Shown: positions 3,675 through 33,765 of the stretch, in pieces
Layout of the letters: every line of letters starts with the position of its first letter
Numbering within the stretch: the first letter of the stretch is position 1
Origin: an uncultured virus (IMG/VR IMGVR_UViG_3300024935_000002)
Taxonomy: Duplodnaviria > Heunggongvirae > Uroviricota > Caudoviricetes
Length of the DNA stretch: 64,000 nucleotides
IMG/VR virus record: IMGVR_UViG_3300024935_000002
Reading direction: 5' to 3' (one strand)
Notes under the pieces: generated by a model
Seen by the model: the letters and a program-made list of their open reading frames with translations, nothing else
Database searches by the model: none
Told to the model about the DNA's origin: nothing
Position numbers and translations under genes: made by a program

Positions 3675-3694
3675 GCGCCCACCGCGAACCCCAG

Positions 3695-3721
3695 AAAGCC
3701 GCCCACTGAGGCGGCTTTTTT
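3695..3721 (+). terminator. Rho-independent terminator
   Basis: AAAGCCGCC-CACTGA-GGCGGCTTTTTT. Confidence 0.8.
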
Positions 3722-3732
3722 GCGCCTACCCA

Positions 3733-3770
3733 GCATAGGGCAGAGGGTTTTTGCCACACCTGGGAATACT
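3733..3770 (+). promoter_or_regulatory. Late promoter motif copy 3 (GCATAGGGC-N23-AATACT), head operon
   Basis: Directly after a terminator, upstream of scaffold and capsid genes. Confidence 0.75.
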
Positions 3771-3934
3771 TGTTCCAAGCCCCCCGCTGTGAAGCGCCGG
3801 GCGAAACCGCACCGCTGTGAAGCGGCGCATATCCCGCAGCAGGAGAGCGGAAAGCCGGGGCGATGGCCCTGGCCAACCCTCGACCGCATGCCCAGTCAGG
3901 CCCAGCCGGATAGCTGGGATGGAGCACGCAGCAA

Positions 3935-4978
3935 ATGGCACTCACACCTGCCGAACTTCTTGAAAAGGCCCTCAGCGGCGAGTCGTTGGATGACGATGGC
4001 GCTGGCGAAGGTACGACCACCACCACGACCACCCAGGAAGACCCCAAGGACAACAACGCCGAAGGCGCAGCGGATGCTGCCAAGACCGGCGCGGCTGACC
4101 AGGGCAAGGCCACGGGCGGCGCTGGTACCACCGAAGACGACGAGCCCAAGGGCGCGCCGATTGCCAGCAAGTCTGGCGCTTACACCATTCCCTACGAGAA
4201 GTTGGAGCAGTCACGCGAGCGCGTGAAGTCTCTGGAAGGTGAAAACGAGTCCCTGCGCGCACAGCTGGCTGAGCTGAACGCCAAGCAGCAGGCGAACCTG
4301 GAACAGGCCGAGGACAAAGCCCAAGCCCGAGCGGATGCCGGGAAGGCGCAGACCCAGGCCGACCAGAACCTTGAAGCCGCGAAGACCGCCATGGGGCAGG
4401 GTGTGGATGCATCCCTGTTCGGTGACTTCTCGGAGGAAGGCATCGCCAAGGGCATCGCCGCCCTGATGGGGCGCACCCGCGAGGAGCTGCGTGAGGAACT
4501 TCGCGCCGAGCTGCGCGAAGAAGCCGCCCGCGAGTTGAAGCCTATCAAGGACCGCGAGGCCAAGGAGGTCAAGGACGAGCACTACGGCGCGATCTACGAA
4601 AAGCATCCCGATGCCAACGAGATCGTGCAGTCGGTTGAGTTCAAGGCCTGGGTCAACGGCTTGCCGGGCTTCCAGCGCGGCGCCGTGGATGCGGTGCTCC
4701 ACCCGGAAACGGGCGGCACTGCTGCGCAAGTTATCGAAGTTTTTGACACGTTCAAGGCGCAGACCGGTATGGCCGCAGCGCCTGCCGCTCAGGACAAGGG
4801 CAAGGCACCGGAGGTGCAACGCCGCGTCCCCAACTCGCTGTCGGAGATCGCGGGTGAGCAGCACCAGGACATCGCCCAACAGGTTCTGGCTTCGGCCGGT
4901 ACCAACCCCAATGCGCTCCTGGAGCGCATGCAAGACATGTCGCCCGAGCAGATCGAGCGCGTGATGAACGCCGTTTAG
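3935..4978 (+). CDS. Scaffolding protein
   Basis: Acidic disordered N-terminus, coiled coil, immediately before the capsid gene. Confidence 0.7.
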   Translation: MALTPAELLEKALSGESLDDDGAGEGTTTTTTTQEDPKDNNAEGAADAAKTGAADQGKATGGAGTTEDDEPKGAPIASKSGAYTIPYEKLEQSRERVKSLEGENESLRAQLAELNAKQQANLEQAEDKAQARADAGKAQTQADQNLEAAKTAMGQGVDASLFGDFSEEGIAKGIAALMGRTREELREELRAELREEAARELKPIKDREAKEVKDEHYGAIYEKHPDANEIVQSVEFKAWVNGLPGFQRGAVDAVLHPETGGTAAQVIEVFDTFKAQTGMAAAPAAQDKGKAPEVQRRVPNSLSEIAGEQHQDIAQQVLASAGTNPNALLERMQDMSPEQIERVMNAV

Positions 4979-5035
4979 TTTTTGAAACCGGGCCGCTCGT
5001 GATGAGCCGCCCCCGTCCCATTGAAGGAGGTCACT

Positions 5036-6331
5036 ATGACCATGAACAGCCACGTACCGGCCGGTTCCGATAAGGCGCAGTTTGTCCAGTCTGCCGGCAT
5101 GTTTGCCCTGGCCGAAAACCGCCTGTCGCGCCTTGGCCAACTCTCCGGTCCTCTGCCCAAGGGCGAGGGCAAGGTCGCGGAAATGATCCGCAAGCAGTCC
5201 AGCTCCGATTTTCCCATCGTGAAGTGCATGGACTTGTCTCGCGGCATGGGTGATGAGGTGGAATTCCACTTCGTTCAGCCGTCGAAGCGCCGCCCCATCA
5301 TGGGCTCGCGCATGGCCGAGGGTAAGGGCAAGGGCTTCGCATACGACAAGGCCCGCACCCGCGTTGACCAGGCGCGTATCCCCGTGAAGTTGGGTGACAC
5401 CATGACGAACCTGCGTTCGGCTGTGGACTTCACCAAGCTGGCACGCCCGGTGGCACAGGCCGATGCCAATGCCTATCTCGATCAGTCGATCCTGACTCAC
5501 GTGGCCGGTGCTCGTGGCTTCCACGACAACATCGAGTGGCGCCTGCCCACCGAGGACGATCCCGAGTTCGCAGAGCTGCTGGTGAACCCTGTCAAGGCAC
5601 CCACCAAGAACCGCCACTACATGGCGGACGGCACCAACGGCATCAAGTCCTTCACCGTGAGCGCTGGCGAGGCATCGCTGGCAACCACTGACGACCTGAA
5701 CATGACCGTGGTGGACGCGATCCGCACGCTCATCGAGTCCATTGCGATGCCACCTCCCGCCGTGAAGATTCCCGGCGACGTGGCTGCCGAGGATGAGCCT
5801 TTGCGCGCTCTGCTGCTGTCCCCAGCGCAGTACCACGCCTTCTCGCAGGACGATGCTTTCCGCAAGTTCCAGGTGGCGGCCCTCAACCGCGCATCGAACG
5901 CGAAGCGTCACCCCCTGTTCCTGGGCGAGGCTGGTCTGTGGAACGGCATTCTGCTGCTCAAGCAGCCCAAGCCGGTGCGCTTCTATGCGGGCAACACCAT
6001 CCGCTACGCCAACAGCTTCACCTCGGAAGCTGAAAGCTCGTGCGTGGTGCCTGCGTCGTTCACCAACACCCACGCGGTGGACCGCGCCATCCTGCTGGGT
6101 GGTCAGTCGCTGATGCAAGCCTTCGCGGCCTCTGGCCTGTCGGGCATGCCGTTCTTCTGGAACGAAGAAACCTTCGACCACAAGGACAAGCGCGAACTGA
6201 TGATCGGCGTGATCCAGGGTCTGCAGAAGGTGCGCTTTGCGGTGGACCAGGGCGACGGTACCAAGCACTGGACCGACATCGGCCCTATGGCCATCGACAC
6301 CGTGGTGAAGCTCATCCCGGGCGAACGCTGA
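5036..6331 (+). CDS. Major capsid protein (N4 gp56/DUF4043-like)
   Basis: AAGGAGG RBS; DLSRGMGDEV and HPLFLGEAGLWNGILL motifs; about 430 aa. Confidence 0.85.
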   Translation: MTMNSHVPAGSDKAQFVQSAGMFALAENRLSRLGQLSGPLPKGEGKVAEMIRKQSSSDFPIVKCMDLSRGMGDEVEFHFVQPSKRRPIMGSRMAEGKGKGFAYDKARTRVDQARIPVKLGDTMTNLRSAVDFTKLARPVAQADANAYLDQSILTHVAGARGFHDNIEWRLPTEDDPEFAELLVNPVKAPTKNRHYMADGTNGIKSFTVSAGEASLATTDDLNMTVVDAIRTLIESIAMPPPAVKIPGDVAAEDEPLRALLLSPAQYHAFSQDDAFRKFQVAALNRASNAKRHPLFLGEAGLWNGILLLKQPKPVRFYAGNTIRYANSFTSEAESSCVVPASFTNTHAVDRAILLGGQSLMQAFAASGLSGMPFFWNEETFDHKDKRELMIGVIQGLQKVRFAVDQGDGTKHWTDIGPMAIDTVVKLIPGER

Positions 6332-6397
6332 TAGGCCACGCGGGGCGCCACGTGCGCCCCGCCCCCATCCCCCTCAATTCAAGAACGGAGGCCACCC

Positions 6398-6877
6398 ATG
6401 GCAACCATCAAAGTCAAGAGCGTCGGCTACGGCGTACACCTGGGCAATACGCCCTGGGGCAATCTCACGGCGCTGCGCTATGTCGTCAAAACCGGCGCTA
6501 CTGGCGCCGTCATCAACTCCGACTCCACTGCGGCCATTGCTGCCAATGACATCGTGAACCTGGGCCATCTGCCCTCCGGTTTCCGTTTCATTGACAGCCA
6601 GGTCACTGTGGTGACGGGCATGAAGGCCACTGCCACCGGCGACTTGGGCTTTGCCTACAAGGACGGAGTGGATGACGCCGCTGTGCCGCAGGACGCGGAC
6701 TACTTCGGCGCCGGCCTGGCTATCGCCACCGCAGCCCGTCTGCGCAATGCGACCACCAACCCCAGCATTGTCCTGCCGAAGGATGCCAATCTGCTGCTGA
6801 CCGTCAAGACGGTGGGCAACGACAAGGCTTCGGAAATCGAAGTCGTGATCTACGGCATTGCCGAAGGCGTGAAGTAA
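6398..6877 (+). CDS. Probable capsid decoration/cement protein
   Basis: Beta-rich 159 aa directly after the capsid gene, GGAGG RBS. Confidence 0.55.
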   Translation: MATIKVKSVGYGVHLGNTPWGNLTALRYVVKTGATGAVINSDSTAAIAANDIVNLGHLPSGFRFIDSQVTVVTGMKATATGDLGFAYKDGVDDAAVPQDADYFGAGLAIATAARLRNATTNPSIVLPKDANLLLTVKTVGNDKASEIEVVIYGIAEGVK

Positions 6878-6925
6878 GGAACGGCGGGCCGGGAAACCGG
6901 CCTGTCTCCTTTTCTGGAGGCTCCA

Positions 6926-7381
6926 ATGAAATTTGAGTTGATCCGCTACGAGGGCACATCCCCGTACACCGACCGTACCCCCATGCGCAACGCTTGGGAG
7001 CCGGGCGAGGAAAAGCTGGTGTCCGAGGTGGATGCCAAGTTGCTGATGCGCTACCTGGAGTTCAAGCGCGTGCCCGCTGTCGCCAAGAAGGCCGCCAAGG
7101 CTGAGAAGTCCGACAAGACGAGCACGGAGCCGACCTCCAAGACCGATGACAGCAACGCCGCTGCCCTGGCCCAGGCCCAAAAGGCAACCACTGAGCAGCA
7201 GCTGCGCGAGAAGCAGGCCAGCGAGCAGATCGAGGCGACGCTGCTGGAGGTGTCGCACATGACCAAGAACGCCTTGTCGGACTTCGCCAAGGCGAACTAC
7301 GGCGTGGTGCTGGACATGAAGAACAAGGCCGATGACCTGCGCAACCAGGTCACGGCACTGGTGCAGGGCGGGCTCAACTGA
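6926..7381 (+). CDS. Hypothetical virion-region protein
   Basis: GGAGG RBS, operon position. Confidence 0.6.
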   Translation: MKFELIRYEGTSPYTDRTPMRNAWEPGEEKLVSEVDAKLLMRYLEFKRVPAVAKKAAKAEKSDKTSTEPTSKTDDSNAAALAQAQKATTEQQLREKQASEQIEATLLEVSHMTKNALSDFAKANYGVVLDMKNKADDLRNQVTALVQGGLN

Positions 7382-13429: not shown

Positions 13430-15277
13430 ATGGCCAGCGCAGCAGAACTTGTCAACAACACCTTCGCCCTCGCCCAGGGCTATGCGCAGAGCGCGCAGCA
13501 AAACCTGACGTCTTTTGCTGATCGCCTGAAGAACGCGATCTACACCCCGCCTACCCTGAGCGTCACATGGACAACGCTGGGGGCGCCCACGCTCGCGGCC
13601 ATGCCCACGGCGCCGACGATGCCCACCATCAATTTTGATCCGGGCATTCTGGGCAACGCGCCGAGCCTGTTCAACGAGGACGCGCCGAGCTTGGCGATTT
13701 CGGACTTCACGGACGATGCGCCGGTCCTGATCCTGCCCACCGCCCCGGCCATCAGCTATGGAGACATCCCGGCTGTGCCCTCTATTGGGACGGTGGCGGT
13801 CCCAGATGCGCCCATGGTGAGCATGCCTGCCGTGCCCACCTACGTGAGCATCAATGCCGTGCCCTTCGGCGGCATCGACCTGCACGACGAATGGCTCGAC
13901 AGCTTGGGCGACCGGCCTACGCTGGAGCTGGCCGCGCCCACGCCGTATTCCTACGCGCGAGGGCCTGAGTACGCCTCCGAGCTGCTGGACAAGCTGAAAT
14001 CGGTGCTTGATGCCCGCATGAGCGGTGGCACCGGCTTGGACCCTGCGGTGGAGCTGGCCATCTGGGACCGCGCGCGCGGCCGCGAGACGCAGATTGCCTT
14101 GGCCAACGTGGCTGAGGTGATGCGCACCAGTGAATCTTTCGGTTTCTCCTTGCCCACGGGGGTGCTGGCGGCCCAGCTGCGCGATGCCCAGCGGGACTAC
14201 TACGACAAGCTCTCCGGTCTGTCCCGCGACATTGCCATCAAGCAGGCGGACCTGGAGCAGGAGAACCTGAAATCCGCCATTGCAGCCGGCATGCAGCTGG
14301 AGCAGCAGCTGATTACCTACTCCTACCAGATGGAGCAGCTGTCTTTCGAGGCCTCCAAAGCCCTGGCCGACAACGCCATCCAGATCCACAACGCGGCCAT
14401 TGAGCAATTCAAGGGGCTGCTGCAGGGCTACCAGACCTACGCCAGCGTCTACAAGACCATCATCGACGGCCAGCTGGCCAAGGTGGAGGTGTTCAAGGCG
14501 CAGCTGCAGGGTGAGCTGGCCAAGGCCGAGATCAACAAGGTGCTGGTGGAGCAGTACAAGGCCCAGATCGAGGCCGGCATGTCGCAGGTCAAGATTTACG
14601 AGGCCCAGGTGGGCGCGGCCAAGACCCTGGTGGAGTTGGAGCAGGCCAAGATCGGCGCGGCGGGCGAGCAGATCCGTGCCTACGTGGCCCAGGTCAACGC
14701 CGAAACCTCCAAGGTCGAAGCGTACAAGGCCAGCGTGCAGGCTGAGGCGACCAAGATCGACATTTGGAAGACCAAGGCGCAGGTGTACGGCATCCGGGTG
14801 GGGGCGCAGGCCGAGCACTCGCGCGCGCTGATCTCGCGCTACCAGGCCCTGATTTCTGCCAAGACGGGGGAGTGGGAAGGCTACCGGGCCCGCGTGCTGG
14901 CCGAAAGCACCCGTATCGAGGCGCTGGGCAAGCAGTCCGGGGCGCTGCTCGATGGCTTCCGCGCACAAACCCAGGCGCTCAGCGCACAGGCCGAGCTGCA
15001 GACCAAGGTCTGGGAATCCAACATGAAGCAGTACGAGGCGGGCGTTCAGGTGGCGATGCAGGCCGCCAAGATCAACAACGACGCGGCCATCCAGACCAAC
15101 AACGCGCGCCTCGATGCGGCCAAGGCCGGCACGCAGGTGTACGCACAGCTCACGTCGAGCGCCTACAGCATGATGCACGCGAACGCGGGCATCAGCGGCA
15201 GCGCGTCCATGGGGGTGAGCTACAGCTACAGCGGTGATGTGACCGGTACGGTACCGGCGATCTCTTCGCCGGGCTAA
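13430..15277 (+). CDS. Virion protein: Pro-rich N-terminus, long helical repeat C-terminus
   Basis: Repeats such as YKAQIEA and YEAQVGA. Confidence 0.6.
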   Translation: MASAAELVNNTFALAQGYAQSAQQNLTSFADRLKNAIYTPPTLSVTWTTLGAPTLAAMPTAPTMPTINFDPGILGNAPSLFNEDAPSLAISDFTDDAPVLILPTAPAISYGDIPAVPSIGTVAVPDAPMVSMPAVPTYVSINAVPFGGIDLHDEWLDSLGDRPTLELAAPTPYSYARGPEYASELLDKLKSVLDARMSGGTGLDPAVELAIWDRARGRETQIALANVAEVMRTSESFGFSLPTGVLAAQLRDAQRDYYDKLSGLSRDIAIKQADLEQENLKSAIAAGMQLEQQLITYSYQMEQLSFEASKALADNAIQIHNAAIEQFKGLLQGYQTYASVYKTIIDGQLAKVEVFKAQLQGELAKAEINKVLVEQYKAQIEAGMSQVKIYEAQVGAAKTLVELEQAKIGAAGEQIRAYVAQVNAETSKVEAYKASVQAEATKIDIWKTKAQVYGIRVGAQAEHSRALISRYQALISAKTGEWEGYRARVLAESTRIEALGKQSGALLDGFRAQTQALSAQAELQTKVWESNMKQYEAGVQVAMQAAKINNDAAIQTNNARLDAAKAGTQVYAQLTSSAYSMMHANAGISGSASMGVSYSYSGDVTGTVPAISSPG

Positions 15278-15379: not shown

Positions 15380-17143
15380 ATGCGAGGCTTTCAACCCAAT
15401 ATGGGCGCGATGAAGCGCCACAAGAAGGCGGCGGGCCAGCACTACGCCAACGGCGGCATGGTTCGCGGACCCGGTACCGGCACTTCCGACGAGGTGCCCG
15501 ACGAGGTTCCACCCGGCACGTACATCATGCCGGCCGACTCCACCGCCGAAATGGGCGAGGAAGCGCTGGAGTCCATGGGCAAGAAGCCCATGCTGCCCGG
15601 CGAAGAGGCGGCCGAGGGCGAGGTGCCGGTGAGCCTGAGCAATGGGGAGTTCAAGCTGCCGCCAGAGCAGGTGCATGCTGTGGGCGTGCAAGCATTGGAA
15701 GCCATGAAGAACGCTACGCACAAGCCGGTGCGCGGCTTCGCCCCCCAGGCACAGCCGGAAGAGCCCCGCCAATTCTTTGCCAACGGGGGCCTTGTGCAGG
15801 ACGAGGAAAAGCAGCGCTTGGCCAATCAGACGGCCATGTACGTGCGCGGCGCGCAGGAGTCGGCCGCCACTCGCCCAGCAATGCCGCCCAGTCCACCGCA
15901 GGCAGCCACCACGAGCCAGATTGCACCCACCCCTGCACCAGCCGCCGCTGGCTTTATGCCTGGCACGCGCGCCGTGTTCAACGAGTCCGGCAAGGCCATC
16001 GGTGATCTTGCCAAGCAAGGGCGGTATGGCGCAGCCGCTGGGGAAACCGCACGCGCTGCACTGGCCTACGCGCCGGCTGTTGTTGATGACGTGGTGGGCG
16101 GCGCGCTCCGTGCTGTGGCGCCTACGGTCGTAGATGCCGGCAAGCAGTTCTTTGGTACTGCAGGCACGTCCATGGCACAGGCGCCAGCCCCTAGCGTCAC
16201 GGCCAAGCCGGCTGCCATGCCCATGCCTTCGGCGTCTCCCGCACAGGCGCAGCCTGCTACTGCGGCCACAGCACCGGTAGGGGAGCCCGCCGCCACGCCC
16301 GCCGCACAGCCACTCGCTGGAGGCCCGATTTCTGCGCAGAACAACGCAGCGGCGGAAGCGCTCTCTGCGCCCCGTGCAGTTGGCTTCGCGCCTGGCGTGG
16401 CCTCAACGGCGCCTACTGCTCAGGTGGCGGCCCCTGTTGTCCGCAATTCCACCAATGATTGGGCTGCACGCAACGCGATTCGCAGCGCGCAAGTGTCCGC
16501 CAGCTCGATCACCAACGATCCGTCGCGCATTGGCGCACGTGCCGCTGCGCTCAGCCCTGACAACCTGGCCTTTCAGGCAGCGCTCAAAAATGACCAGGTG
16601 CTGCAGCTGGCCCAGCCAGGAATGGACTTGGCCGCCATGCGCGAGAACTCTGCGCTCCAGCGAGAAGGCATGCAGCAGTCCGGTGCTGACCAGCGTTCGG
16701 CACGCGGTTTTCAGATCGACAACCGCCGAGCGGCCGTCGAGGAAAAGCGCGCCGCAACCGAGGCGGAGGCACGTGGCTTTGACATTCGCCAGGGTTACCG
16801 CCAGGAGAAACTGAGCGAGCGTTACGACGCTGCAAAGACGCCCGAGGAAAAGGCCGCCATCGCACAGCAGATCCGCGATCTGTCCGGCAAGCAGACGGAA
16901 TCGCCATGGAAACTCCAGGTGACGCCGACCACGAAGAATGCTGATGGGTCCACTACCGAGGGTAGTGTGATCCGCTACAACCAGCAGACGGGTGCGGTTG
17001 AGCGTGTGGATGCGGGGCAGGGGGGACGTGCAGGAAGCCCTGCGCCACATGATGCTTCGCAGCGTCGGGTTGGCACGACTTACGCCCTGCCAAATGGGAA
17101 GATGGGCCAGTGGACGGAAAAGGGCTGGCTCCTGGTTGGCTAG
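15380..17143 (+). CDS. Probable internal virion (DNA ejection) protein
   Basis: AAGGAG RBS; GPGTGTSD/LSNGEF motif known from tape-measure-type proteins; Ala/Gln-rich; precedes the giant virion protein. Confidence 0.6.
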   Translation: MRGFQPNMGAMKRHKKAAGQHYANGGMVRGPGTGTSDEVPDEVPPGTYIMPADSTAEMGEEALESMGKKPMLPGEEAAEGEVPVSLSNGEFKLPPEQVHAVGVQALEAMKNATHKPVRGFAPQAQPEEPRQFFANGGLVQDEEKQRLANQTAMYVRGAQESAATRPAMPPSPPQAATTSQIAPTPAPAAAGFMPGTRAVFNESGKAIGDLAKQGRYGAAAGETARAALAYAPAVVDDVVGGALRAVAPTVVDAGKQFFGTAGTSMAQAPAPSVTAKPAAMPMPSASPAQAQPATAATAPVGEPAATPAAQPLAGGPISAQNNAAAEALSAPRAVGFAPGVASTAPTAQVAAPVVRNSTNDWAARNAIRSAQVSASSITNDPSRIGARAAALSPDNLAFQAALKNDQVLQLAQPGMDLAAMRENSALQREGMQQSGADQRSARGFQIDNRRAAVEEKRAATEAEARGFDIRQGYRQEKLSERYDAAKTPEEKAAIAQQIRDLSGKQTESPWKLQVTPTTKNADGSTTEGSVIRYNQQTGAVERVDAGQGGRAGSPAPHDASQRRVGTTYALPNGKMGQWTEKGWLLVG

Positions 17144-17586
17144 CGCTTCGCCGGAAAGCCGACTTCCTCGTCAGACAAATACTTTGGTGGCTGCTGCGAC
17201 TGGACCGGAACCTCTTGTCGCGGTCCTTGTTCTGTTGCCAGCGGGGAAGCCCTCTGTGTCCTTGTTCCATTTCCGGTGCTGAGGGCGACAGTGAGCAAGA
17301 TGCCGAGGATTGGCATGGCCACCACGGCACGGGCGGCCCACTTCCAAATTGCCGGCCCGGTGTATCTCCCGGCTGAACGCCAGAGCCCGATGTACCAGGC
17401 CAGCATGTAGGCAAACATCATCAGTGCCCAGACTTGATACAGCCCAGGGCTGATCCCTCTGAGGCCTCCAAGTGCCATGCCTGCAGCAGCCCCAGCCACA
17501 ATGCCGTGCAGCCAGAACATTCTGGCGAGCGGTATTTCTCCTGACACGAATGCGGCTATTGGGTTGCGTTGCGCTGTCGCGGCCAT
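17140..17586 (-). CDS. Three-TM membrane moron, candidate superinfection exclusion protein
   Basis: AGGAGG RBS, own extended -10 (TGaTACAGT), three hydrophobic segments, polar C-tail ending KYLSDEEVGFPAKR. Confidence 0.7.
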   Translation of the reverse strand: MAATAQRNPIAAFVSGEIPLARMFWLHGIVAGAAAGMALGGLRGISPGLYQVWALMMFAYMLAWYIGLWRSAGRYTGPAIWKWAARAVVAMPILGILLTVALSTGNGTRTQRASPLATEQGPRQEVPVQSQQPPKYLSDEEVGFPAKR

Positions 17587-17622
17587 AGTGCTCTCCTCCT
17601 AGCGGGACTGTATCAGGGAGCC

Positions 17623-17652
17623 AAAAACGACAAAGCCCGCCGAGGCGGGCTT
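17623..17652 (-). terminator. Terminator hairpin
   Basis: Inverted repeat AAGCCCGC/GCGGGCTT with a T tract on the minus strand. Confidence 0.7.
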
Positions 17653-17670
17653 CAACAGAAGCAAACAAAG

Positions 17671-17934
17671 CTAGAAAGCGGACTCCTGCACTTCATTGTT
17701 CGCGGACATTGTCAATTTTGACTTTATTCCATTGGACTTGCTTTGGAGTGCGCGCTGGGCCCAAACAACGAGTGGGCTTCTTTCCACTCGTGCCTCTTCG
17801 CGCTGTTGATTCTCTGCGAAGGTCTTGTAGATCGAGCGATTTGTGCGATCGCCAGCCTCTGAATCAAGGTCTTTCAGTGACACGACACGCGTCGGCTTCT
17901 CAGAAGCCAGAACATCATTCAATGTGATCATCAT
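17671..17934 (-). CDS. Small hypothetical protein in the moron operon
   Basis: AAGGAG RBS; directly downstream of the Ntn-like gene. Confidence 0.6.
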   Translation of the reverse strand: MMITLNDVLASEKPTRVVSLKDLDSEAGDRTNRSIYKTFAENQQREEARVERSPLVVWAQRALQSKSNGIKSKLTMSANNEVQESAF

Positions 17935-17949
17935 TCTGCTCCTTCAACA

Positions 17950-19218
17950 TCAATCCAGGGAGCGGCTAAGCCTCGTAGCATACCTCAAGTTCAAATCGGG
18001 CTCGAAGTAGTGTTTACGCTTGATCCATACCAAGCCCTCTGTCTTTGTGATCGCCGCTACGTCAATCGGACCGCCAACCGATTCTGAGGGTGATGTTACG
18101 CGCTCCTTCAATGACTCCAAGCCGAGAAGTGATTCCGCAAGATGGGCCATTTCTGAAATGCTGAGCGACTGAATCACTGATATCAGAGGATGAAAGTTTC
18201 GCTTCCAGTTCTCTGCCTTCCATTCACTCGTGAAGCGGCTGTGGCAATCGTCTGTGATGGTTGCAACAAGGGCAGGGGGCACCTCAATGCCCGCCGCCGA
18301 CAGCTGCTCGAAAACATTGCCAAGGGCATTTCGACTTTGGGTACCAATGATTGAGGCCAGAGATGATCCGAAGCCATCAGTGAACATGTCAATCATGGAC
18401 GTCTGGGCGAGCGGTTGGATCATGGCCGTTCCATCGCGATCAACTTCGTAGGTATTTTTCTTCTCATGACAAAGTTCATCGCCAATATGCCCGAACACCT
18501 CGTACTGCTCATATGCGGGATAAATCTGATCTTCGCCATACCCTGCAACGACGACGCCTGTGTTTCCAAGAAGCATCGACGGGGCGCAGTAACGTAGTCG
18601 ATGGCCCATTTCTGCTAGTTGGACAGGATTTACTCCTTCAAGCGCAGGAACCACCGCTACTTGTTCGGCGGCTCTTTGACTCCAAGTTTTCAGGTCTGTC
18701 AGCACTTCCTCCAAACGGGCTCTGGAAAGTGATTGGTGAATTCCCCTGTCCGTAAGCAACTGGTCCAATTTGATTGCCGCTCGATTCCACATCACGGCCC
18801 GGTCAGCGGGACTGACATTCGCCTCAAATATCCCCTTTTCATAGGCCCGCGCCTCTTGCAGCAAGAGCGCTATCGCGTTGTCAAACTGGTCAGTTATCCA
18901 ATTTTTGCGCGTCTCTACTGGGAAGAGCTTGTTGTTAGAACTCAGGTACGAGAAAAGTGCCGCTCCGTACTCAGCGAGCGTGTTGAACTTCGCGCCGTCG
19001 ATATGCGCTCTAAATAGCTTTAAAGCTACTTCCCAGGGCACAGTGTCCACTGAGGCGCTCCCATAGATGGCTGCGGCCACGTTGCCGTGTTTACTCAGTT
19101 CGAAGATTTTGTTGGCAGATTTTGAATATCTCGGGTGCTCGCCGCCCGAGGTCGTCACCGCGCTATCGGCGCCAATCACGATTGCACGCTTGTTGAGAAT
19201 AAGCACTTCACTGGTCAC
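17950..19218 (-). CDS. Proteasome-beta/HslV-like Ntn hydrolase with large insertion (moron)
   Basis: GTG start after AGGGAG gives (M)TSEVLILNKRAIVIGADS..NKIF..IYG, and C-terminal SVGGPIDV; lower GC than flanks. Confidence 0.65.
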   Translation of the reverse strand: MTSEVLILNKRAIVIGADSAVTTSGGEHPRYSKSANKIFELSKHGNVAAAIYGSASVDTVPWEVALKLFRAHIDGAKFNTLAEYGAALFSYLSSNNKLFPVETRKNWITDQFDNAIALLLQEARAYEKGIFEANVSPADRAVMWNRAAIKLDQLLTDRGIHQSLSRARLEEVLTDLKTWSQRAAEQVAVVPALEGVNPVQLAEMGHRLRYCAPSMLLGNTGVVVAGYGEDQIYPAYEQYEVFGHIGDELCHEKKNTYEVDRDGTAMIQPLAQTSMIDMFTDGFGSSLASIIGTQSRNALGNVFEQLSAAGIEVPPALVATITDDCHSRFTSEWKAENWKRNFHPLISVIQSLSISEMAHLAESLLGLESLKERVTSPSESVGGPIDVAAITKTEGLVWIKRKHYFEPDLNLRYATRLSRSLD

Positions 19219-19280
19219 GAGCATCTCCCTGGTCATTTCTCCTCAAGGTAGCGTACCAGAGCAACACAGTTCGTCCCCCA

Positions 19281-19318
19281 GCATAGGGTTAGGGCTCTGG
19301 TGAAGGGCAGGCCATCCT
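19281..19318 (+). promoter_or_regulatory. Late promoter motif copy 5 (GCATAGGGT-N23-CATCCT), probably leaderless
   Basis: ATG 19325 lies 7 nt after the hexamer. Confidence 0.75.
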
Positions 19319-19324
19319 GGGGGG

Positions 19325-22300
19325 ATGAACCCTCAGCATCTGAATGACCAACAAGTAGGCCTTGGCGCACCAACTGCAGACAGCACCAAACCTAAAGCTG
19401 ACAACAAATTCCTGAGTGATGCCGAAGCTGGCTTTGAGCCGCCATCCCGTGGCTTCAAAGGCTGGGCAGGCGACGCGCTAGGGGTTGTGGCTCGTGGCGC
19501 TATCTCTGTGCCAGAGGCTGCTGTGGGTCTGCTCGACATCCCCACTGGCGGCGCAGTCGGCAAGGCTCTGGAGAACGAGGGTGGGGCTGTTGGCCTGCGG
19601 TTCAAGCAGGCCAAAGAGGCTGCAAGCGATCTGTTCGACTCGGACGCCACCAAGCAGCAGAACCAGCAATTTCAGCAAGCCGATGGCATCGTAGAGAAGG
19701 CCAAGGTTGCCCTCTCCAACCCGAGTATGGTTGTCCGTGCTATTGGGGAGTCCGTTCCATCCATGGTCGCGGGTGGCGTCGCTGCGCGAGGCCTCATGGC
19801 CGCTACGAAGCTGGGCCAAATGGGCGCCCAGGGTGCGGCTCTGGCAGGTGCCGCCGGTGAGGGCATCACCATGGCGGGCTCTGCGGCCGAGCAGATCCGC
19901 CAGGAAACGAAAGATGGGCTTCTGACCCCTGAGCAGGCGGGGCTGGCGGCTGCAACGGGCGTAGTCGGTGGCGCCATGAGCGCTTTGGGCGGCCGCGTGG
20001 CCAACAAGTTGGGTATCGGTGACGCCGAAACCATGCTGGCCCAGGGCACCAAGGGTATGGCGAAGCAGAACGCCGACGATGCCGCTACCGCCGCCGTCAA
20101 TCCTCTGGTGCAGCAAGCGGCTGCCAAGAGCATTCCGCGCCGCGTGATTGAGGGCGCAATCTCCGAGGGTTTCCTGGAAGAGCTGCCGCAGTCCGTGGCC
20201 GAGCAGATTTTCCAGAACGTGGCGCTTGGCAAGGACTGGCTGACGGATGTGGATTCCGCAGCGGTCATGGGCGTGCTGTCGGGTGGTGCAATGGGTGGCG
20301 CGGCTTCCGGCTATCACGGCTTCAAGCAACCTAAAGCGGAACCAGGTGCGTCGCCTTCCGAGCAATCTGGTGCAGCACCCACTGACACCGGCGCCGCGCC
20401 GCCTAACCTCGGCATGGAGCGTATCCAGCAGGCATTTGCCGCCCAACTGGCGGCGCTGCAGCAGCAGGAGCAAGGCGACCCCAACGTGCCCCAGACCGTG
20501 CCGCCCGATGGCGCTGCAGCGCTGGCGCAGCAGCAGGCCAAGGCCGCCGAGCAGCGCCAGGCCGCCATGGACGCTTCGCGCGCAGTGCAGAGTCCTGACG
20601 ATGAGATTTATCAGTCCACCGGTGCGACCGTGCCGCGCTCCGTGGCCATGGGCTTGGACCCTGCTGCCGGCCCGCTGTCGGCCAGTGCCGCGCTGGCTGT
20701 CGATACCGGCGCCTCAGACCAAGTGCAGCAGGCCCCTGCGCTGGCCCAGGCTGCCGAGGTGGCGCAAAAGCAAGGCAAAAAGCCTGCCCAAGGGGATCAA
20801 AAACAAGAGCAGCCAGCGCTTACTCAGCAAGGCGTAAACCAGGAAACGGGCGAAATTTCGCAGGACTCGCCCATGGAGAGCTGGAGCGATGCCCAGTTGT
20901 CCAACACCTTCCGGGGCGCTCAGTCGCGCGAGGTCCGCATGCAACTGGCCCAGGAGCTGGGCCGCCGGCGTGCGCTGCGTGAGCAGCAGGAGCTGCAGGC
21001 CGAGCTGGATGCAGAGCAGCGCGCCAGCGTGCCCGGCGCAGAGCGCGCCGATGCCGCTTTTGCCTCCCTCACCGAAGACGCCGGCCCGGTACCGACCGAT
21101 TTGACCATTCCCGCAACCACAGAAGGAAACCGCAATGGCCCTCAAGCCGCCCAAGCCCAGCAAGGTAGCGCGCAACCGTCGCAAGTCGGAGCAGCGCCAG
21201 CAGTCGCACTTGGAGCACCAGATGCTCAAGGACGCCCAGGCGCGAATGGCGCGCAGCAAGCAGCCGCTGCAGGCCTGACCGATGGCGCCCCGACTGCGAA
21301 CCCTGGAGCGCAAGCAGCGCCAGCGGCAGGCCCGGAAGCTCAGGCGCCAAGCGGCAAAGTCGAAGCGCTGCGCCAGCAACTGCGCGACGTAGAGGCCAAG
21401 ATCCTCGGTGCTTCCCCGCCCGCGATGGGTCAGGGCGGCGGCGACATCGAGGGGGCCATGAAAAGCCGCAAAGTGCCCGTGACCCTCAAAGCGCAGCGCA
21501 AGAAGCTGGTGGATCAGGTACGCGCGGCACAAGAGTCCGAGGTGAAAACCTTTGCGCCCGAGACAGGGACGTTGGGCATCCCGCGCGAAGAAATGCCGCA
21601 GGTGCCCACGCAATCGCACGGCGGTCTGGTCAAGCACCTGAACGCCCAGGGTATCGCGCACGAAACCACAACGGTGAATGCAGCGGACCTGAAACCCACG
21701 CAGGCGGAATACTCGCCCGCCAAGGTGGAGGCCGCCAAGGCTGCCACCGGGGACCGTGCCGTGATCGTGTCCAGCGATGGGCATGTGATCGACGGGCACC
21801 ACCAAGCCATGGCAGCGGCCGAGGAAGGCAAGCCCGTTAAAGCCATCGTGCTGGATGCACCGGTGGAGCAGGCGCTAGAGGCGCTGAAGAACTCGCCGAG
21901 CGCTCTGGGAAATGAAGAGAATAAGGCCCCGGCGCCTGATAATGTTGCCTCGATTGCTACGAAAAGCGCAGCAAAGAAAAAGGCTGACGAGGCCGCGCCC
22001 GCTGCTCCCACGGAGCCCAAGAAGGACGCTAAGCGCGGCATCCTGGCCAAGAAAGCAGCAGCGGAAGAGGCTGCGCGTGCCGACTATTTCAGCCCTGGGA
22101 ACATCGTCAAGAGCTACGGCGGCCACGACCGCGTGGTGTCTTATCTGCCTGCGGACCAAGACGGGCGCTGGAGCGTGACAGTGCGCCAGGTGCGGCCCCA
22201 GGACGGTAAGTGGATCGATGTTCCAGGCCTGCGCGAGCGCACCCACGCCACCCCGCCTGATGCTCGCGAGTTGAAGGCTGGGCCTGTTTCCCGCGCTGCA

Positions 22301-25300
22301 GTGGCAGAACCGGCGCGATTGGTGCCAGGGCCAGATGCTCAGGACCAGGCCACTGAGCCGGTGCCAGCGGTGGCCAGCGTGCCCACAGACCGCATCACCG
22401 ACTTCGGCGAGAAGATCGGCGGCGCGCGCAAGGACCAGGCCGCCACCAAGGGCGCGAAGGCCGCACGGCCGCGCAGCGCGGATGAGCGCCCCGCCTGGGC
22501 ACGTCGGTATGAGGTCAGCCAGATCGCCAAGAGCAACCGCGTGGGAGAAGAAGGGCGCTGGGTAGTGCATGACACGCGCCGCCTCGATGCTTTCAAGCAG
22601 CCGCGCCAGATGGGGCGCGAATCCTACGCAACGAAGGAAGAGGCCGAGCAGGCCGTGCCGCTGTTGGCGGTCAGCCAGAAACATCGCGTGGTGCCTGCGC
22701 GCGGTGACGGCGCGGGATATGAGATCTGGCGGGACGTGAGCGACCGCAAGCGCGTGAAGGTGGTGGACCAAGTGTTCCCCACGCGCGAAGCCGCTCTGGA
22801 GCACATGGTGGCCAACGCGCAGGCCATCATTGAAACGAACACCACATTTGGCGAAGCGGATCTGCCGCGCCCGCCTTCGGACCAGCGTATTGGCGCGGAG
22901 CGCCGCACGGGCGACGCGCGGGACAGCGATTTCATGGAGGTATTTGGCTTTCGAGGCGTGGAGTTCGGCAACTGGAACAACCAGCAAGAACGTCAGGAGC
23001 TTCTGAACGATGCCTACGATGGGCTGCTGGACCTGGCCGAGGTGATGGACGTGCCCCCGCGCGCGATCAGCCTGAACGGAGAGTTGGCGCTGGCGTTTGG
23101 AGCCCGTGGCCACGGGCTGAGCGGCGCCCGCGCGCACTACGAGCTGGACAAGGTGGTCATCAACCTGACCAAGATGAACGGCGCCGGCTCACTTGCGCAT
23201 GAGTGGTTTCACGCCTTGGATCACTACTTCGGCCGCCAGGACGGCAAGGCCCCTGCCGAGTGGGTGGTGGCCAAGGACGGAACTCGCTCACTGCAGGTGC
23301 ACGACGCACCAGAAGACGACATGGCCAGCGGCGGCACGCGCGGCGAGCGCTCTGGGATGCGCCCAGAACTGCGCGAAGCATTCGCGGAAGTGATGCGCAC
23401 GATTGCGCGCAAGGCAGAGGCCTATGTTGAGGACACAGCGCGCGCCGACCGCTTTGTGGCCGCAGCCCGGGAAGAGGTGAAGCGGCGCCTCGACGGCATC
23501 CGCTCCGACCTGGCTCGCGACCTGGACAGCCGGTATTACAAGCGCCACAACAAAGCCGCCACGGCGGATCAGCTTGCCGAGTTCGACTCGGTGGCCGAGA
23601 AGATCGTCGCGGGAGAGTCGCTGGAGCTGCGGGTGGAGTCCAAGGGCACTGGCCGCTCCATCAGCGCTGGAATCCGCTGGACCAATGACGCGCTCAACCG
23701 CCTGAGTGCTGTGATGAAGGCGGTGCGGGGCCGCCAGGGCTTCTCAGCCGACCAGGACGGCCCACTGGACCGACTGCGCGGCGTTATGCAGAACTACAGC
23801 GCGCGCTTGAAGATGCTGGCCGACGCGCAAGACGCGACGGAGAAGAGCCGCGCTGTGCCTACTGAGTTCGTCATGAACGCCAAGGAGCTGGATCAGGGCC
23901 GTGGGCAGGACTACTGGACCCGCCCGCACGAGTTGGCGGCACGGGCCTTCCAAGGCTATGTGGAAGACAAGATCGCCGAGCGGGGTGGACGCAGTCCCTT
24001 CTTGAACTATGGCCCTGAAAACGCTGCCATTCCCACCCCCTGGGGTTTCAAGCGGCCTTTTCCTGCTGGCGCCGAGCGGGTGGCAATCAACAAGTCTCTG
24101 GACAAGTTGGTGGATGTCATCCAAACCCGTGAGGGCGAAAGCGGGGGCGTAGCACTGTTCCGCCGCGAGGGCTCCGAAAAAGTAGAGCGGGCGGCCGAGT
24201 TCGACGTTGAATCGTTCCTCAAGGTGATGGGGCGCTCGTCGGCCTACTCCGAGGCCGCGCAGCGCCAAGCCATCGACTCTGTTACCGCCACCGTGGATGC
24301 CATCCGCACTGCCTGGGGCCCGAACGCACCCGAGGTGGTGGTGGCCTTCGACATGCAGGACGAGCGCATTCCCGAGGCGGCCCGCAAGGCCGACCTGCGC
24401 CAGCGCAGCGGCGGTGCACGCGGAGCGCCCGAGGGCTTCTACTACCGTGGCAAGGCCTATCTGATGGCCTCTCGCCTGAACACGCCCAACGATGCGGCGC
24501 GCGTGCTGTACCACGAGGTGCTGGGCCACCACGGGCTGCGCGGCAAGTTCGGCCGCGACCTGGACCAGGTGCTGAACCAGATCGCCACCATGCGCAAAGC
24601 CGAGGTGGCCGCCAAGATGCGGGAATACGGCCTGCGCGGGGTGAACAGCCTGAGCGTGCGCGAGGCGGCCGAGGAGGTCCTGGCAGAAATGGCCGAGAAG
24701 AATCCGCAGCTGCCATTCGTGCAGCGGGCGATTTCCGCCATCCGCAACTTTCTGCGCCAGCATGTCCCGGGCTTCCAGAGCCTGCGCCTGACGGACAACG
24801 ACATCATTCAGGCGTACATCCTGCCAGCACGCGGCTGGGTGGTGCGCGGTGGCCCCGATGGTGGCCCCGGTGGTGGGCTTGGCTTCTCTCGTGCCGATGA
24901 AACCCCGCTGCGCCCGGCATCCACATTCACCGAAGCGCGTGAGGCGGCCCAGGAATTCCAGGGTAAGGCTCTGACCAATGAGGCAACGGGGCTGCGGGCA
25001 AATGTGTCTCGCAATACGCTGGACAAGATGCTCAGTCGCAAAGCGGTGGAGAAGTCGGCCAGCGCCCAGGCGCAGTCTCGCGCGGTGGCAAACCTCGACC
25101 GCCTGTACCAAGACGCAATCTTCGGGTGGAGCAAGGAAGACCGGGACGGGAACACCAATGTTCGGGCGGTGCACCGCTTTTTTGTGCCCATGGCCATGGA
25201 TGGGCGCATGCTGATGGCGAAGCTCACCGTGAAAGAAACGGTGGACGCCAATCATGCCAATCCGCTCTACACGGTGGAGGCGGTGGATTTCAACGAAAAA

Positions 25301-28300
25301 TCCCCCGCAGCTGTGTGGGTGGACGCATCTGCCAAAGCCGATGGCATTGACCTGACTTCCATCCGCTCTGCGAGGGACGTTCTCAGTCTAGCGCAGGAGA
25401 TTGAGCAGCGCAACGCCGAGGATGACGGCGGTGCGTTGTTCAGTCGCTCCAAGATGGCAGACATCGGAGGGTCCGCGATGGGGCAGTTGCAGGAGGCCAT
25501 GACCCATCCTGGCAAGGTGTCTCTGTGGGACAAGACCGTGGGCACCATGCGCAACCTGGCCGAGCGCTCGCCGGTGTTCAAGCCGGTGTACGAGGCGGCG
25601 CAGCGCTTCATTGATGACGTGTCCATGCTGGGCAACGACGCTGCCGACCGCGCGCCGCGCTTGCTGCCCCGGGTGGAGACGCTGGCCGACCTCAAGAAAA
25701 AACCGATCACGGCCGCCGACAACCAGGCCGTGGCCAAGCCACTGTTTGAGGGCACGCTGCTGTGGGCGCGCGATGTGGACGGCACGCCCGTGACCACCGA
25801 GGCCCTGAATGCGAAGTACCGCAACACCACGCCCGACGAGAAGGCGCAAATCCTGCTGCGCACCGGGAAGATTCAGGAGCAGATGCTCAAGGCGTGGCGC
25901 GGCCTGCCGGTGGATCAGTACAACACCATCATCGATAACAAATTTGATAGCACTATCCTCAAGCCGGGCGTGATCTGGAGTGAAAAAGAGCTGAAAGAAT
26001 TGTTCGGCCTGAACGCCCAGCAGGTGAGCCTGTACCAGGAGGCACGCGCCGCGATTGATCGCTCGCTGGACATGACCGCACGTGCCGACATGCTGCGCGC
26101 CATGGGCGCCGGATATGCCGATCTGCGCGAGGCGGTCCTGGCCCAAGCCACCGTGGAAGACGCGATGGTGCTCATCACGGACACGCTGCAGGCCGAGGCC
26201 CGGGAGTTCCCCGATCAGGCCGACCGCATCCTGCGCCTGAACAACGCCGTGGTGAAAAGCTACGAACGCGCCAAGGCGCTGATGGATGCGGGCTACGCGC
26301 CGCTGTCGCGCTTTGGCCGCTACACCGTGGACGTGGTGGGCAAGGACGGCACACGCGAGTATTTCGGCATGTTTGAGTCTATGTACGAGTCCAACAAGAT
26401 GAAGGCCGCCATGGTGAAGGAATTCCCGGGCGCCACCATCACCCAGGGCACCATGAGCGACGAGGCATTCAAGCTGTTCCAGGGCATCACCCCGGAGAGC
26501 TTGGAGCACTTCGGCGAAATGCTGGGCCTGAGCGGTGAGGGCACGGACCCGAAGGACAAGGCATTCCAGGCCTATCTGCAGCTGGCGAAGAACAACCACA
26601 GCGCGCTCAAGCGCCTGATCCACCGCAAGGGCATCAGCGGATACAGCGAGGACGTGGGCCGGGTGCTGGCGAGCTTTGTGTACTCCAATGCCCGCCTGGC
26701 GGCCGGGGGCCTGAACGCGGGCACGCTGGAAGCCGCCATCGAGGGCATCCCGAAGGAGCAGGGCGAGCTGCGCGATGTGGCCATGGGCCTGCGCAGCTAC
26801 ATCCAAGATCCCCAGGAGGAAGGCCAAGCCGTGCGCGGCATGTTGTTCGCGCAGTACCTGGGCGGCTCCGTGGCTTCGGCCATGGTCAACATGACCCAGC
26901 CATTTCAGATCACCATGCCCTGGCTGTCCCAGTTCGGGGGCATGCGCAGCGCAGCCTCGCACCTGGCTGCTGCAGTGCGCGACATGACCCGCCGCAACAG
27001 CTACGAGCCAGACCTTGCCAAGGCGCTGCAAACGGCCGAGGCCGAGGGCATCGTGTCGCCCCAGGAAATCCACCAGCTGATGGCGCAGGCCCGGGGCGCG
27101 GGTTCGCTGCGCACCGGTGACGGTACCAAGCTGGGCGACGCCCGCGCTGCGGCGGCCAACAACTGGGAGCGCGTCAAGGTGGCATGGGGCCAGCCCTTCG
27201 CCCTGGCCGAGCAGTTCAACCGGCGCAGCACCTTCATCGCCGCCTACCGCATCGCCAAGGAGCAGGGCATGGCCGATCCGGCGAAGTTTGCCGAGCGCGC
27301 AGTGCAGGAAACGCAGTTCGTGTATTCCAAGGCCAACAAGCCGAAGTGGGCACGCGGCACCATCGGCGGCACGCTATTCACCTTCAAGACCTATTCGGTC
27401 AGCTATCTGGAGCTGATGCACCGCATGTGGACTCAGGGAGGCCCCGAGGGCAAGCGTGCTGTGGGATGGGCCGTGGCCATGCTGCTGCTGATGGGTGGTG
27501 CTGGTGGCCTGCCGTTCATGGAAGACGCCGAGGATCTGATCGACGGCGCCGGCCAGCTCATGGGCTACAACATCAGCACCAAGCACTGGCGCAAGCAGGC
27601 GCTGCGCGATGTGGTGGGCAAGGAGCTGGCCGACTTCATGGAGCAGGGCGTGTCCGGCTTGCCTGGCGCCCCCATCGACGTGTCTGGCCGCCTGGGCATG
27701 GGCAACCTGATCCCCGGTACCGGACTGCTGCTGTCCAAGCAGAACCGCGAGCGCGATCTGCTGGAGGTGGCGGGGCCTGCGGGCGACCTGGTGGCTCGCG
27801 GCTTCACGGGGGCACGCAAGGTGCTGACGGGCGACGTAGCCGGCGCGGCGCTGGAGGTGTCCCCAGCGGCGGTGCGCAACTGGGCCAAGGGCATCGACAT
27901 GGGGACCAGTGGCATCTACAAGGACGCCAAGGGCTACAAGGTCATTGACACCACGCTGGATGAGGCAATTGCGAAGTTCGCGGGCTTCCAGCCCAAGAGC
28001 GTGGCCGAGGTACAGGAGGCCAACTCCTTCATGCAGCGCTCCAAGAGCTTCTACATCCAGACCAGCAATGACATCAAGGCGCAGTGGGCGCAGGCTGTCT
28101 TTGAGAAGGATGACGATGCCCTACAGCGGGTGCGTGACCGCCTGGCCGCCTGGAACCGGAACAACCCGGACCAGACCATCGTGGTGAAGATCCCAGACGT
28201 GATGAAGCGGGTGCGCGAAATGGGCAAGGACCGCACTGCACGGATCGCAGACACGGCACCCAAGGCGCTGCGCCAGCAGATGCGGGATATGGCACGAGAG

Positions 28301-28309
28301 AACGGGTAA
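19325..28309 (+). CDS. Giant polyvalent virion/ejection protein (ParB-like, LPD1/metallopeptidase, second zincin, LPD3-like, PLxRFG), 2994 aa
   Basis: [45 protein letters not shown] and YAPLSRFG motifs. Confidence 0.8.
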
Positions 28310-33276: not shown

Positions 33277-33765
33277 ATGAACTCAATGAATTTTGGAATG
33301 GCCCTCGAAGCCATCAAGGCTGGCAAGCGCATCGCCCGCACCGGCTGGAACGGCAAGGGCATGTTCGTGTACCTCGTTCCACCCGCGAGCTATCCCGTGC
33401 AGACGGGCGCCGCGAAGGCGCACTTTGGTGATGGCGCGCTGGTTCCCTACAACGCCTACATGGCGATCAAGAACGTGGACAACACGGTCAGCACCTGGGT
33501 GCCCAGCGTGAATGATTGCCTCGCATCCGACTGGGGCGTTGTGGGCGAAAGCGAGCAGGCGGCCAGCACCGTGCTGCCCCACCAGCAGCGCGTGATTGAT
33601 GAGAAGGCCGCCCGCGACGGCGAAATCACCCGCCTCAATGCCTTCATCGGCGGCAATGCCATGTTCACCACGTTGCCTGCCGACGAACAGGCCCGCCTGC
33701 GCCGCCAGCTCGATGTGATGCGCGAGCTGTCCGTGATTCTGGGCGAGCGCATCGCCGCTTTCTAA
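33277..33765 (+). CDS. DUF2829 (Tad2-like) domain fused to a crAss001_48-like helical domain
   Basis: MNFGMALEAIKAGKRIARTGWNGKGMF...WVPSVNDCLASDW followed by PHQQRVIDEK...ILGERIAAF. Confidence 0.75.
   Translation: MNSMNFGMALEAIKAGKRIARTGWNGKGMFVYLVPPASYPVQTGAAKAHFGDGALVPYNAYMAIKNVDNTVSTWVPSVNDCLASDWGVVGESEQAASTVLPHQQRVIDEKAARDGEITRLNAFIGGNAMFTTLPADEQARLRRQLDVMRELSVILGERIAAF

Follow-up and report, generated by a model that had tools for sequence, protein, structure and literature searches.

The window, that is, the whole 64-kb stretch of DNA from the uncultured virus IMGVR_UViG_3300024935_000002 that was analyzed here, represents nearly the whole genome of a temperate short-tailed phage. It encodes a P22-like portal protein (146-2443), an SU10-type adaptor, a lysozyme and an ERF recombinase; the lysogeny genes comprise an integrase (35603-36922, minus strand), an S24 repressor (54547-55305, minus strand) and an antirepressor. 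The structural genes show 66-79% DNA identity to those of Pseudomonas phages of the F116/LKA5 group, 8P and USP_25. The subject of this work is a small gene for a 148-aa (amino acid) membrane protein that is located between the genes for two putative ejection proteins and carries, in its C-terminal tail, a peptide similar to the N-terminal motif of the larger of the two. A preliminary description, made from the DNA sequence alone, had proposed that this protein displays a decoy copy of the motif and thereby excludes superinfecting kin. The features on which the analysis centers are the following:

13430-15277, plus strand: 615-aa coiled protein, phrog_10969
15380..17143, plus strand: upstream virion or ejection-type protein, phrog_11341 (PHROG match 2.2e-72), 587 aa from the ATG or 605 aa from the TTG at 15326; referred to below as the 605-aa protein
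17057..17140, plus strand: C-terminal mini-domain of the 605-aa protein (last 28 aa), the proposed motif receptor, delineated by co-variation and an AlphaFold2 model
17140-17586, minus strand: ORF (open reading frame) for the 148-aa carrier protein of family A, with three predicted membrane helices and a 42-aa disordered tail
17155-17184, minus strand: class 1 motif of the tail, KYLSDEEVGF; PAKR and the stop codon come next
19325-28309, plus strand: giant 2994-aa internal virion protein with LPD1 and LPD3, a relative of H66 gp60
19334-19363, plus strand: copy 1 of the giant's N-terminal motif
19406-19435, plus strand: copy 2 of the giant's N-terminal motif

The genes for the 605-aa and 148-aa proteins are convergent, on opposite strands, and overlap in their stop codons. 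The likely start of the ORF of the 605-aa protein is the ATG at 15380, which gives the N-terminus MRGFQP... that relatives also have; apart from the PHROG match, this protein shows weak tape-measure-like matches. Its homologues occupy the same place in LKA5, 8P and USP_25, in which the gene abuts the giant gene with nothing in between, and in 75 of the 81 loci described below. An earlier study assigned the H66 gp60 lineage, that of the giant protein, to IVP-D, the T7 gp16 family, fused to intracellular domains (Hardies 2016, PMC4819975).

The 148-aa protein terminates in QQPPKYLSDEEVGFPAKR, with the tail reading KYLSDEEVGFPAKR. The preliminary description located the motif correctly but placed it at the very end of the protein, from which it is separated by the four residues PAKR. 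The giant protein indeed starts with two related motifs, and both sequences and coordinates were checked; the tail and copy 2 are identical in 7 of 10 positions. The tail has TCT for serine, the giant gene has AGT, and the two sequences are on opposite strands, which argues, as had been proposed, against a DNA duplication. The loose pattern [FYHLWMIV]L[STN]D.[EQD].G[FLIMVYW] finds three matches in the six frames of the window, exactly these three sites; given that the pattern was composed after the sites had been seen, the comparative test described below is the stronger proof.

The predicted architecture of the 148-aa protein agrees with the three membrane segments and flexible tail suggested previously. 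The AlphaFold2 model, based on an alignment of 12 relatives, shows helices at residues 20-39, 47-74 and 79-104, with a predicted local distance difference test score (pLDDT) of 77-89, and residues 107-148, i.e. the tail, with pLDDT below 50. The loop between helices 2 and 3, RSAGRYTGPAIWKWAAR, is basic as noted before, so that, by the positive-inside rule, the tail would be outside the cytoplasm, probably in the periplasm. Searches of Pfam, PHROGs, PADLOC and NCBIfam yielded no match for this protein.

Relatives of the 148-aa protein in a large protein collection number 12, the window's own protein included. In this family (hereinafter family A), the hydrophobic N-terminal part of ~105 residues is conserved, and the tails are of unrelated kinds: KYL[ST]DEEVGFPAKR, GKPC[ST].ITEFLGECKRQP, NLKPF.GKLDGEK, [FL]DPSTARKVE and GPWKKY or GPWLRY, with several tails carrying two or three motif kinds in series. 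The window's tail is identical in P0005, and P0008 contains KYLTDEEVGF. The combination of a conserved three-helix part with a variable tail that contains a motif from the repertoire of the giant proteins was found in 12 of the 12 members, using class patterns that were composed after the tails had been read. No relatives were detected in phage records (tblastn), IMG/VR or species-representative genomes; in metagenomes there was one locus, denoted L004, the only other one found with DNA around a 148-aa homologue. The L004 protein ends in CSQITEFLGECKRQP, with the tail motif SQITEFLGE unrelated to that of the window, and the giant protein of this locus starts with MSQIDDFLAGKAAQPAQKSQIDTFLDAAPP (SQIDDFLAG...SQIDTFLDA). 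Thus, the tail and the giant's head both differ from those of the window yet match each other, i.e. they have switched together. L004 also differs from the window in the final ~35 residues of its 605-aa homologue and in the accessory gene in between.

Loci surrounding relatives of the giant protein were collected from IMG/VR, initially 37 and then the best 80 of 125 stretches encoding a relative. Altogether 81 giant N-termini were readable, two of them doubtful (L095 and L110), and 74 loci could be read at the giant start as well as at the end of the 605-aa gene, resulting in 58 unique pairs. Single-linkage clustering of gapped local alignments merged all N-peptides via low-complexity linkers, and explicit patterns along with nearest-neighbor tests were used instead. 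Exactly two copies of the class motif are present in 58 of the 58 unique N-peptides. The motif appears in at least 13 unrelated classes: LSDxExGF, NxFDQFD, NPFxDPxY, PWExx[YFW], NWxDFxP, S[YF]E[DE]A, SEIDxIL, KPFxGxLD, WWKxGA, WLDxxS, FDPxTA, WGENDK and IDWxxG. A 14th class, DLFDEFG, is found in L081, where there is no readable end of the 605-aa protein. Two irregular giant starts are worth mentioning. One is in L095, a 65195-bp record in which the giant gene starts near 9917: its giant begins with MGRVRVSTASNWW, compared to MADTSKPWEEF... in near-identical relatives, which is suggestive of a sequencing error or a frameshift where the motif is encoded. The other is in L082 (8808-8831, plus strand): another ORF, ~1 kb upstream of the giant gene, starts with GMTEQNTP, similar to the giant's head MSEQNTP, and the beginning of the giant gene may have been partly duplicated there.

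The 605-aa protein of the window ends in RRVGTTYALPNGKMGQWTEKGWLLVG. When the last 28 residues of its homologues were compared, the nearest neighbor of each mini-domain shared the motif class of the adjoining giant in 57 of 57 cases (one singleton class excluded), and when only partners with dissimilar preceding 42 residues were allowed, in 55 of 57. Permutation of the labels reached the observed separation of mini-domains by class in 0 of 5000 trials. There are 30 class-by-backbone combinations for the 13 classes, and the gap between the 605-aa gene and the giant gene ranges from -1 to 7003 bp. The class 1 mini-domain is found in the window, on another backbone in L042 and, in a diverged form, in L082, in each case together with a class-1 giant; the L082 version reads RQIGTIYAMPNGQAARWTSDGWELT and is paired with KYFSDEEMGI in the giant. 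Several of the mini-domain types can be aligned as one small strand-rich unit, G.VY....G....W.G..[WF], which AlphaFold2 predicts as three short strands (pLDDT ~80) behind a linker with pLDDT below 50. Complex prediction for the last 90 aa of the 605-aa protein and the first 50 aa of the giant gave a score of 0.15 (mark 0.34) and was used neither for nor against binding. Each motif class is paired with its own mini-domain type on the preceding virion protein, in line with the co-variation that the preliminary description had predicted.

In the intergenic DNA of these loci, the sequence most similar to the cognate N-peptide repeatedly turned out to be the C-terminal tail of an ORF that, in most cases, is located on the other strand and converges with the 605-aa gene. 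The 23 proteins of this kind belong to three unrelated families: family A, with three membrane helices (the window and L004r); family B, with two to three membrane helices (7 loci); and family C, with a cleavable-looking N-terminal signal-peptide-like segment, ending in ...A-ADYATCLLDK, which comes in long (~210 aa) and short (~120 aa) forms (14 loci). All but one (22 of 23) are encoded on the strand opposite to the giant gene. G001, the virus record nearest to the window, has no family A protein and encodes a family B carrier (locus L043) in which the cognate motif, NHFDQFD, sits inside the protein. From the signal peptide of family C, and the helices and basic loop of the window protein, the tails are predicted to be exported. 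We considered the tail as a ligand of a periplasmic PDZ domain or tail-specific protease and rejected this possibility: the motif is usually 2-10 residues away from the end and is internal in L043 and L037. The L037 carrier (960-2084, minus strand) is a mosaic of 374 aa: its membrane part is distantly related to family A (37% identity), its middle domain resembles that of the family B protein of G001, and a C-terminal piece resembles the end of the family C body, the cognate NPFADPNYG being internal.

For an unbiased test, carriers were chosen by homology to the carrier bodies only, after which the remaining tails were scored for similarity to the cognate N-peptide (7-mer score). Among the 29 non-redundant carriers with intact bodies, the tails of 17 scored higher than the 99th percentile in 1150 comparisons between different classes (binomial p 4.6e-27), and those of 23 scored higher than the 95th; four further carriers (L070, L071, L076 and L079) are truncated. 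The window tail, with a score of 26, is above the 95th and not above the 99th percentile of the non-cognate scores. In a six-frame scan of the whole gap, which is noisy, 12 of the 41 unique loci with an insert of at least 400 bp were above the 99th percentile (p 6e-15), one of these 12 (L082) matching an ORF other than the tail; the carrier tail of L082 contains RYLTDEEAGF and RYYTDEEMGI, compared to KYFSDEEMGI in its giant. The cognate match repeats in 17-18 combinations of carrier family and class. The expectation that homologous carriers match the N-termini of their cognate giants is thus borne out by L004 and by most of the carriers tested.

The database members of family C show the same modular organization. 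A search of the protein collection with one member retrieved 41 proteins, and among 21 database members the bodies are 75-91% identical, with tails that differ by class; the precomputed Pfam label of the family is PF28034. With relaxed patterns, at least one motif of the giant repertoire was found in 39 of 41 family C tails (the two misses being one mis-cut tail and one truncated protein) and in all 12 family A tails; these patterns were post hoc and the counts are descriptive only. At least two classes are combined in 15 of the 41 family C tails and in 3 of the 12 family A tails, and three tails have three classes. Motif density per 1000 residues is 37 in the tails, 0.12 in the bodies and 0.11 in shuffled tails. 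Examples of mixed tails are L057 (classes 10 and 7), L074 (7 and 3), P0008 (11 and 1), and P0030 and P0046 (three classes each). Some tails (L057, L074, L065) contain motifs that are foreign to the resident phage, which suggests action on other phages. The tail GKPC.QITEFLGECK is attached to a family A protein in P0006 and to a family C protein in P0040, which indicates that tails move between carriers.

A carrier is also present in a cultured phage. In the P. aeruginosa phage LKA5 (KC900378.1; L003, 2319-2669, minus strand), an unannotated 116-aa ORF between the homologues of the 615-aa and 605-aa proteins encodes a short family C protein with a signal peptide. It ends in EEKKPWEEYQNLQKDNQP, the tail being KKPWEEYQNLQKDNQP, and its motif KKPWEEY matches the giant of this phage, which starts with MADTSKPWEEF...GEKPWEEF. 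The same ORF was found in 10 phage records that represent 7 phages; no coding sequence is annotated under the match in 7 of these records, and two further ones are without any annotation. The proposed function is therefore directly testable in cultured phages, LKA5 and six relatives.

As far as sequence comparison goes, these results support the decoy and co-variation model of the preliminary description, with cognate tails on the carriers and class switching of mini-domain and motif in 57 of 57 cases. The pattern argues that the mimicry is real and selected: matching tails are borne by conserved carriers 2-7 kb away from the start of the giant, and these require selection. We consider it reasonably probable that the role of the 148-aa protein is to display, from its membrane anchor, a decoy peptide that prevents, in a type-specific manner, superinfecting phages from assembling their DNA-entry conduit. 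In T7, the N-terminal part of gp16 is active in the periplasm. During infection, the mini-domain would dock the N-terminal motif of the giant in the periplasm and so join parts of the DNA-entry conduit. In a lysogen, the periplasm would be filled with copies of the motif that take up the mini-domain when a phage of the same class comes in, such that the conduit stays incomplete and the DNA stays out. Since the decoy would be exported, the lysogen's own virion assembly in the cytoplasm would be undisturbed. An arms race in which exclusion and escape are pitted against each other could have given rise to the many classes and the multi-motif tails. A broader proposition, which we regard as evenly balanced, is that this large clade of temperate, P22/F116-like short-tailed phages joins its entry conduit by a swappable key (the giant's peptide) and lock (the mini-domain), in at least 13 pairs, and that prophages export single-key or multi-key decoys on three kinds of carriers to exclude defined rivals, which would amount to a combinatorial, readable 'exclusion code'.

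Several observations weigh against this interpretation. In the gap-free layout, which is ancestral, the end of the 605-aa protein adjoins the start of the giant, so that co-variation alone could reflect linkage. The loci come from related phages, hence the counts are not fully independent, and the 13 classes were defined by explicit patterns written after the sequences had been read. Six of the 29 carriers score below the 95th percentile: L051 and L083 are without any cognate motif, and in L004r, L065, L117 and L048 there is a weaker likeness, seen by eye only. Ten loci have an insert and no decoy (L042, which shares class 1 with the window, L067, L069, L086, L108, L112, L115, L116, L118 and L121), and in five (L070, L071, L072, L076 and L079) the carriers are truncated. 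Finally, of the promoter and ribosome-binding site of its own that had been attributed to the 148-aa gene, the latter is strong (AGGAGG...ATG) and conserved in L004, whereas the promoter is unconfirmed, no sigma-70-like site having been found in a scan upstream of the gene. With regard to the five truncated carriers (~3640-5410, locus coordinates), these are family C proteins of SEIDDIL-class phages that stop after ~50 residues within accessory islands of 5.7-6.3 kb, and they look like decayed decoys.

Among the alternatives, a superinfection sensor, in which the exported motif captures the ejected protein of incoming kin and signals to the resident phage, affecting lysis timing as in T4 lysis inhibition, or induction, without a physical block, draws on the same exported cognate motif and co-varying partner, and families B and C have sizeable conserved bodies (~190 aa in C) that could include an output part. 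The window's carrier, on the contrary, has no domain besides its three helices and tail; since the tail is all that the three unrelated carriers share, it seems to be what is active, and tails with foreign motifs fit defense better, all of which makes a sensor rather improbable. We assign the same low likelihood to a scheme in which the motif binds a host envelope factor needed by the giant, with exported copies occupying or regulating that factor, so that exclusion would proceed via the host, with something other than the mini-domain as receptor. The assignment of the mini-domain as motif receptor is putative, and its co-variation with the motif may in part reflect linkage, the two being adjacent in gap-free phages; against this stand the many unrelated classes (13 or more) found among phages whose hosts are closely related, each class with its own phage-encoded mini-domain on 2-4 backbones, which a host factor hardly explains, and the maintenance of class across gaps of up to 7 kb.

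Much less plausible than either is a packaging or assembly tag, by which the 605-aa protein would recruit motif-bearing proteins into the virion, the small proteins being cargo or assembly helpers. N-terminal targeting peptides are known for the internal head proteins of T4, and the pair of motif and mini-domain could well serve virion assembly also; but the signal peptides or membrane helices of the carriers take them out of the cytoplasm, where heads are filled, 22 of the 23 carriers are on the strand opposite to the late operon, and foreign motifs, which fit defense against other phage types, would be useless for self-assembly. Chance likeness or a functionless relic of DNA rearrangement, to which the window taken alone (7 of 10 residues, a score not above the 99th percentile) might seem to point, is contradicted by the uniqueness of the pattern to three sites in the window, on opposite strands and in other codons, by the recurrence of the match across family-by-class combinations at the significance given above, by the whole-gap scan and by the mini-domain test, and can be all but dismissed.

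The decoy interpretation has parallels in other systems. In the short-linear-motif mimicry of eukaryotic viruses, a short disordered peptide competes for a binding domain, and in polymorphic toxin/immunity cassettes, matched, rapidly switching pairs arise under conflict. In contrast to these, the phages described here would copy their own or their rivals' peptide and export it against kin, with the pair acting as key and lock. Entry-blocking exclusion proteins include HK97 gp15 and T4 Imm and Sp; to our knowledge, neither these nor the TP-J34 lipoprotein Ltp and T5 Llp have modular class-switching tails. All these proteins, Ltp (PMC3952083) and Llp (10.64898/2026.03.26.714494) included, resemble the carriers in that they are small envelope proteins, encoded by prophages or phages, that stop DNA entry or receptor use. 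Within the literature text available to our search, none of them is described as carrying a copied peptide of an injected protein of the excluded phage. More generally, the search found no description of the motifs, of PF28034 or of decoy-type exclusion, most subscription journals being outside the search and absence in print thus unproven.

The closest counterpart by function and gene position is P22 SieA, an inner-membrane protein, as is also predicted for the 148-aa protein; sieA is located directly after the last ejection-protein gene (gene 16), convergent with it and on the opposite strand, i.e. in the same geometry as the 148-aa gene. Escape mutations from SieA were mapped to C-terminal parts of the ejection proteins gp16 and gp20, and according to the same report one target range is shared by two of three SieA types that differ greatly from each other (Leavitt et al., mBio 2024, PMC10883804), in contrast to the present case, in which the class of the tail follows that of the target. 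The SieA analogy of the preliminary description is limited to function and gene position, given the lack of homology to the 148-aa protein (BLASTP, E 4.1) and of any sign of mimicry by SieA: no 8-mer likeness to gp7, gp20 or gp16 above shuffled sequences was detected, and that report proposes none. In the T7 ejectosome (PMC8605104, PMC8954989), the ejected internal virion proteins gp14, gp15 and gp16 join end to end across the envelope. The giant, on the account cited above, belongs to the same IVP-D lineage as gp16; the 605-aa protein has no shown homology to gp15, and no polymorphic pair of docking peptide and mini-domain was found described for T7 in the literature searched. HXS, a periplasmic effector that arrests phage DNA entry, shares the periplasmic entry block with the putative decoy but is host-encoded, matured by radical-SAM enzymes and broad in range, with proposed electrostatic binding of DNA, rather than a class-specific peptide copy (Li et al., Nat Commun 2026, PMC13128918).

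The region between the 148-aa gene and the giant gene of the window contains further features that are separate from the putative decoy:

17631..17654, minus strand: terminator-like hairpin with T-run, between the 87-aa and 148-aa genes
17671-17934, minus strand: gene for the 87-aa protein (no family match), in a low-GC accessory cassette distinct from the decoy
17950-19236, minus strand: 428-aa gene, phrog_5990, of the same low-GC cassette

The GC content is ~52% in the 87-aa and 428-aa genes, ~61% in the 148-aa gene and ~64% in the surroundings. The cassette (17671-19236) adjoins the carrier gene and has its own terminator, the hairpin (17654-17631 as read on the minus strand) being located ~45 nt upstream of the start of the 148-aa gene. 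The 87-aa protein has no match in Pfam, PHROGs, PADLOC or NCBIfam, the 428-aa protein shows only a faint N-terminal likeness to the proteasome beta subunit (E 0.59), and PADLOC defense models gave no family at E <=0.1 for the 148-, 87- or 428-aa proteins. The cassette is found at ~96% identity in groundwater, rhizosphere and water metagenomes, with differing flanks, and seems to be a mobile accessory module, perhaps a defense gene pair. In sequencing runs of other samples, relatives have 17498-19287 in common with the window at ~96% identity, with 19287-19441 replaced by other letters. A contig from an RNA library that is identical to 17691-17928 (87-aa gene, depth 2.3) was set aside as no proof of transcription of the 148-aa gene, DNA being possible in such libraries. 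At the position of the cassette, L004 has a gene (6082-6990, minus strand) for a 302-aa protein with weak matches to STAS and histidine-kinase-like ATPase domains, below the Pfam cut-offs. Another recurrent junction gene (L005/L042, 4189-4800 in L005 coordinates; L041; L030) encodes a secreted Cys-rich DUF4124 protein without a motif tail. Elsewhere in the window, the gene at 33277-33765 (plus strand) encodes a fusion of a Tad2-like (anti-Thoeris) domain (E 3.4e-25) with one related to crAss001_48.

Superinfection exclusion at the stage of DNA entry is known, with a mechanism that is largely unsolved even for P22 SieA. The observation from which this work started is confirmed and, judged from sequence, the decoy would represent superinfection exclusion with a new, readable mechanism. 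If this is true, the sequence itself states the mechanism, competitive display of the invader's docking peptide, and specificity can be read from ~10 residues. The same interpretation would reveal how two ejected proteins of these phages join, and would explain why this gene junction is a polymorphic hot spot for accessory genes. Cross-exclusion among prophages would then be predictable from sequence, and exclusion could be re-programmed by the swap of a 10-residue tail.

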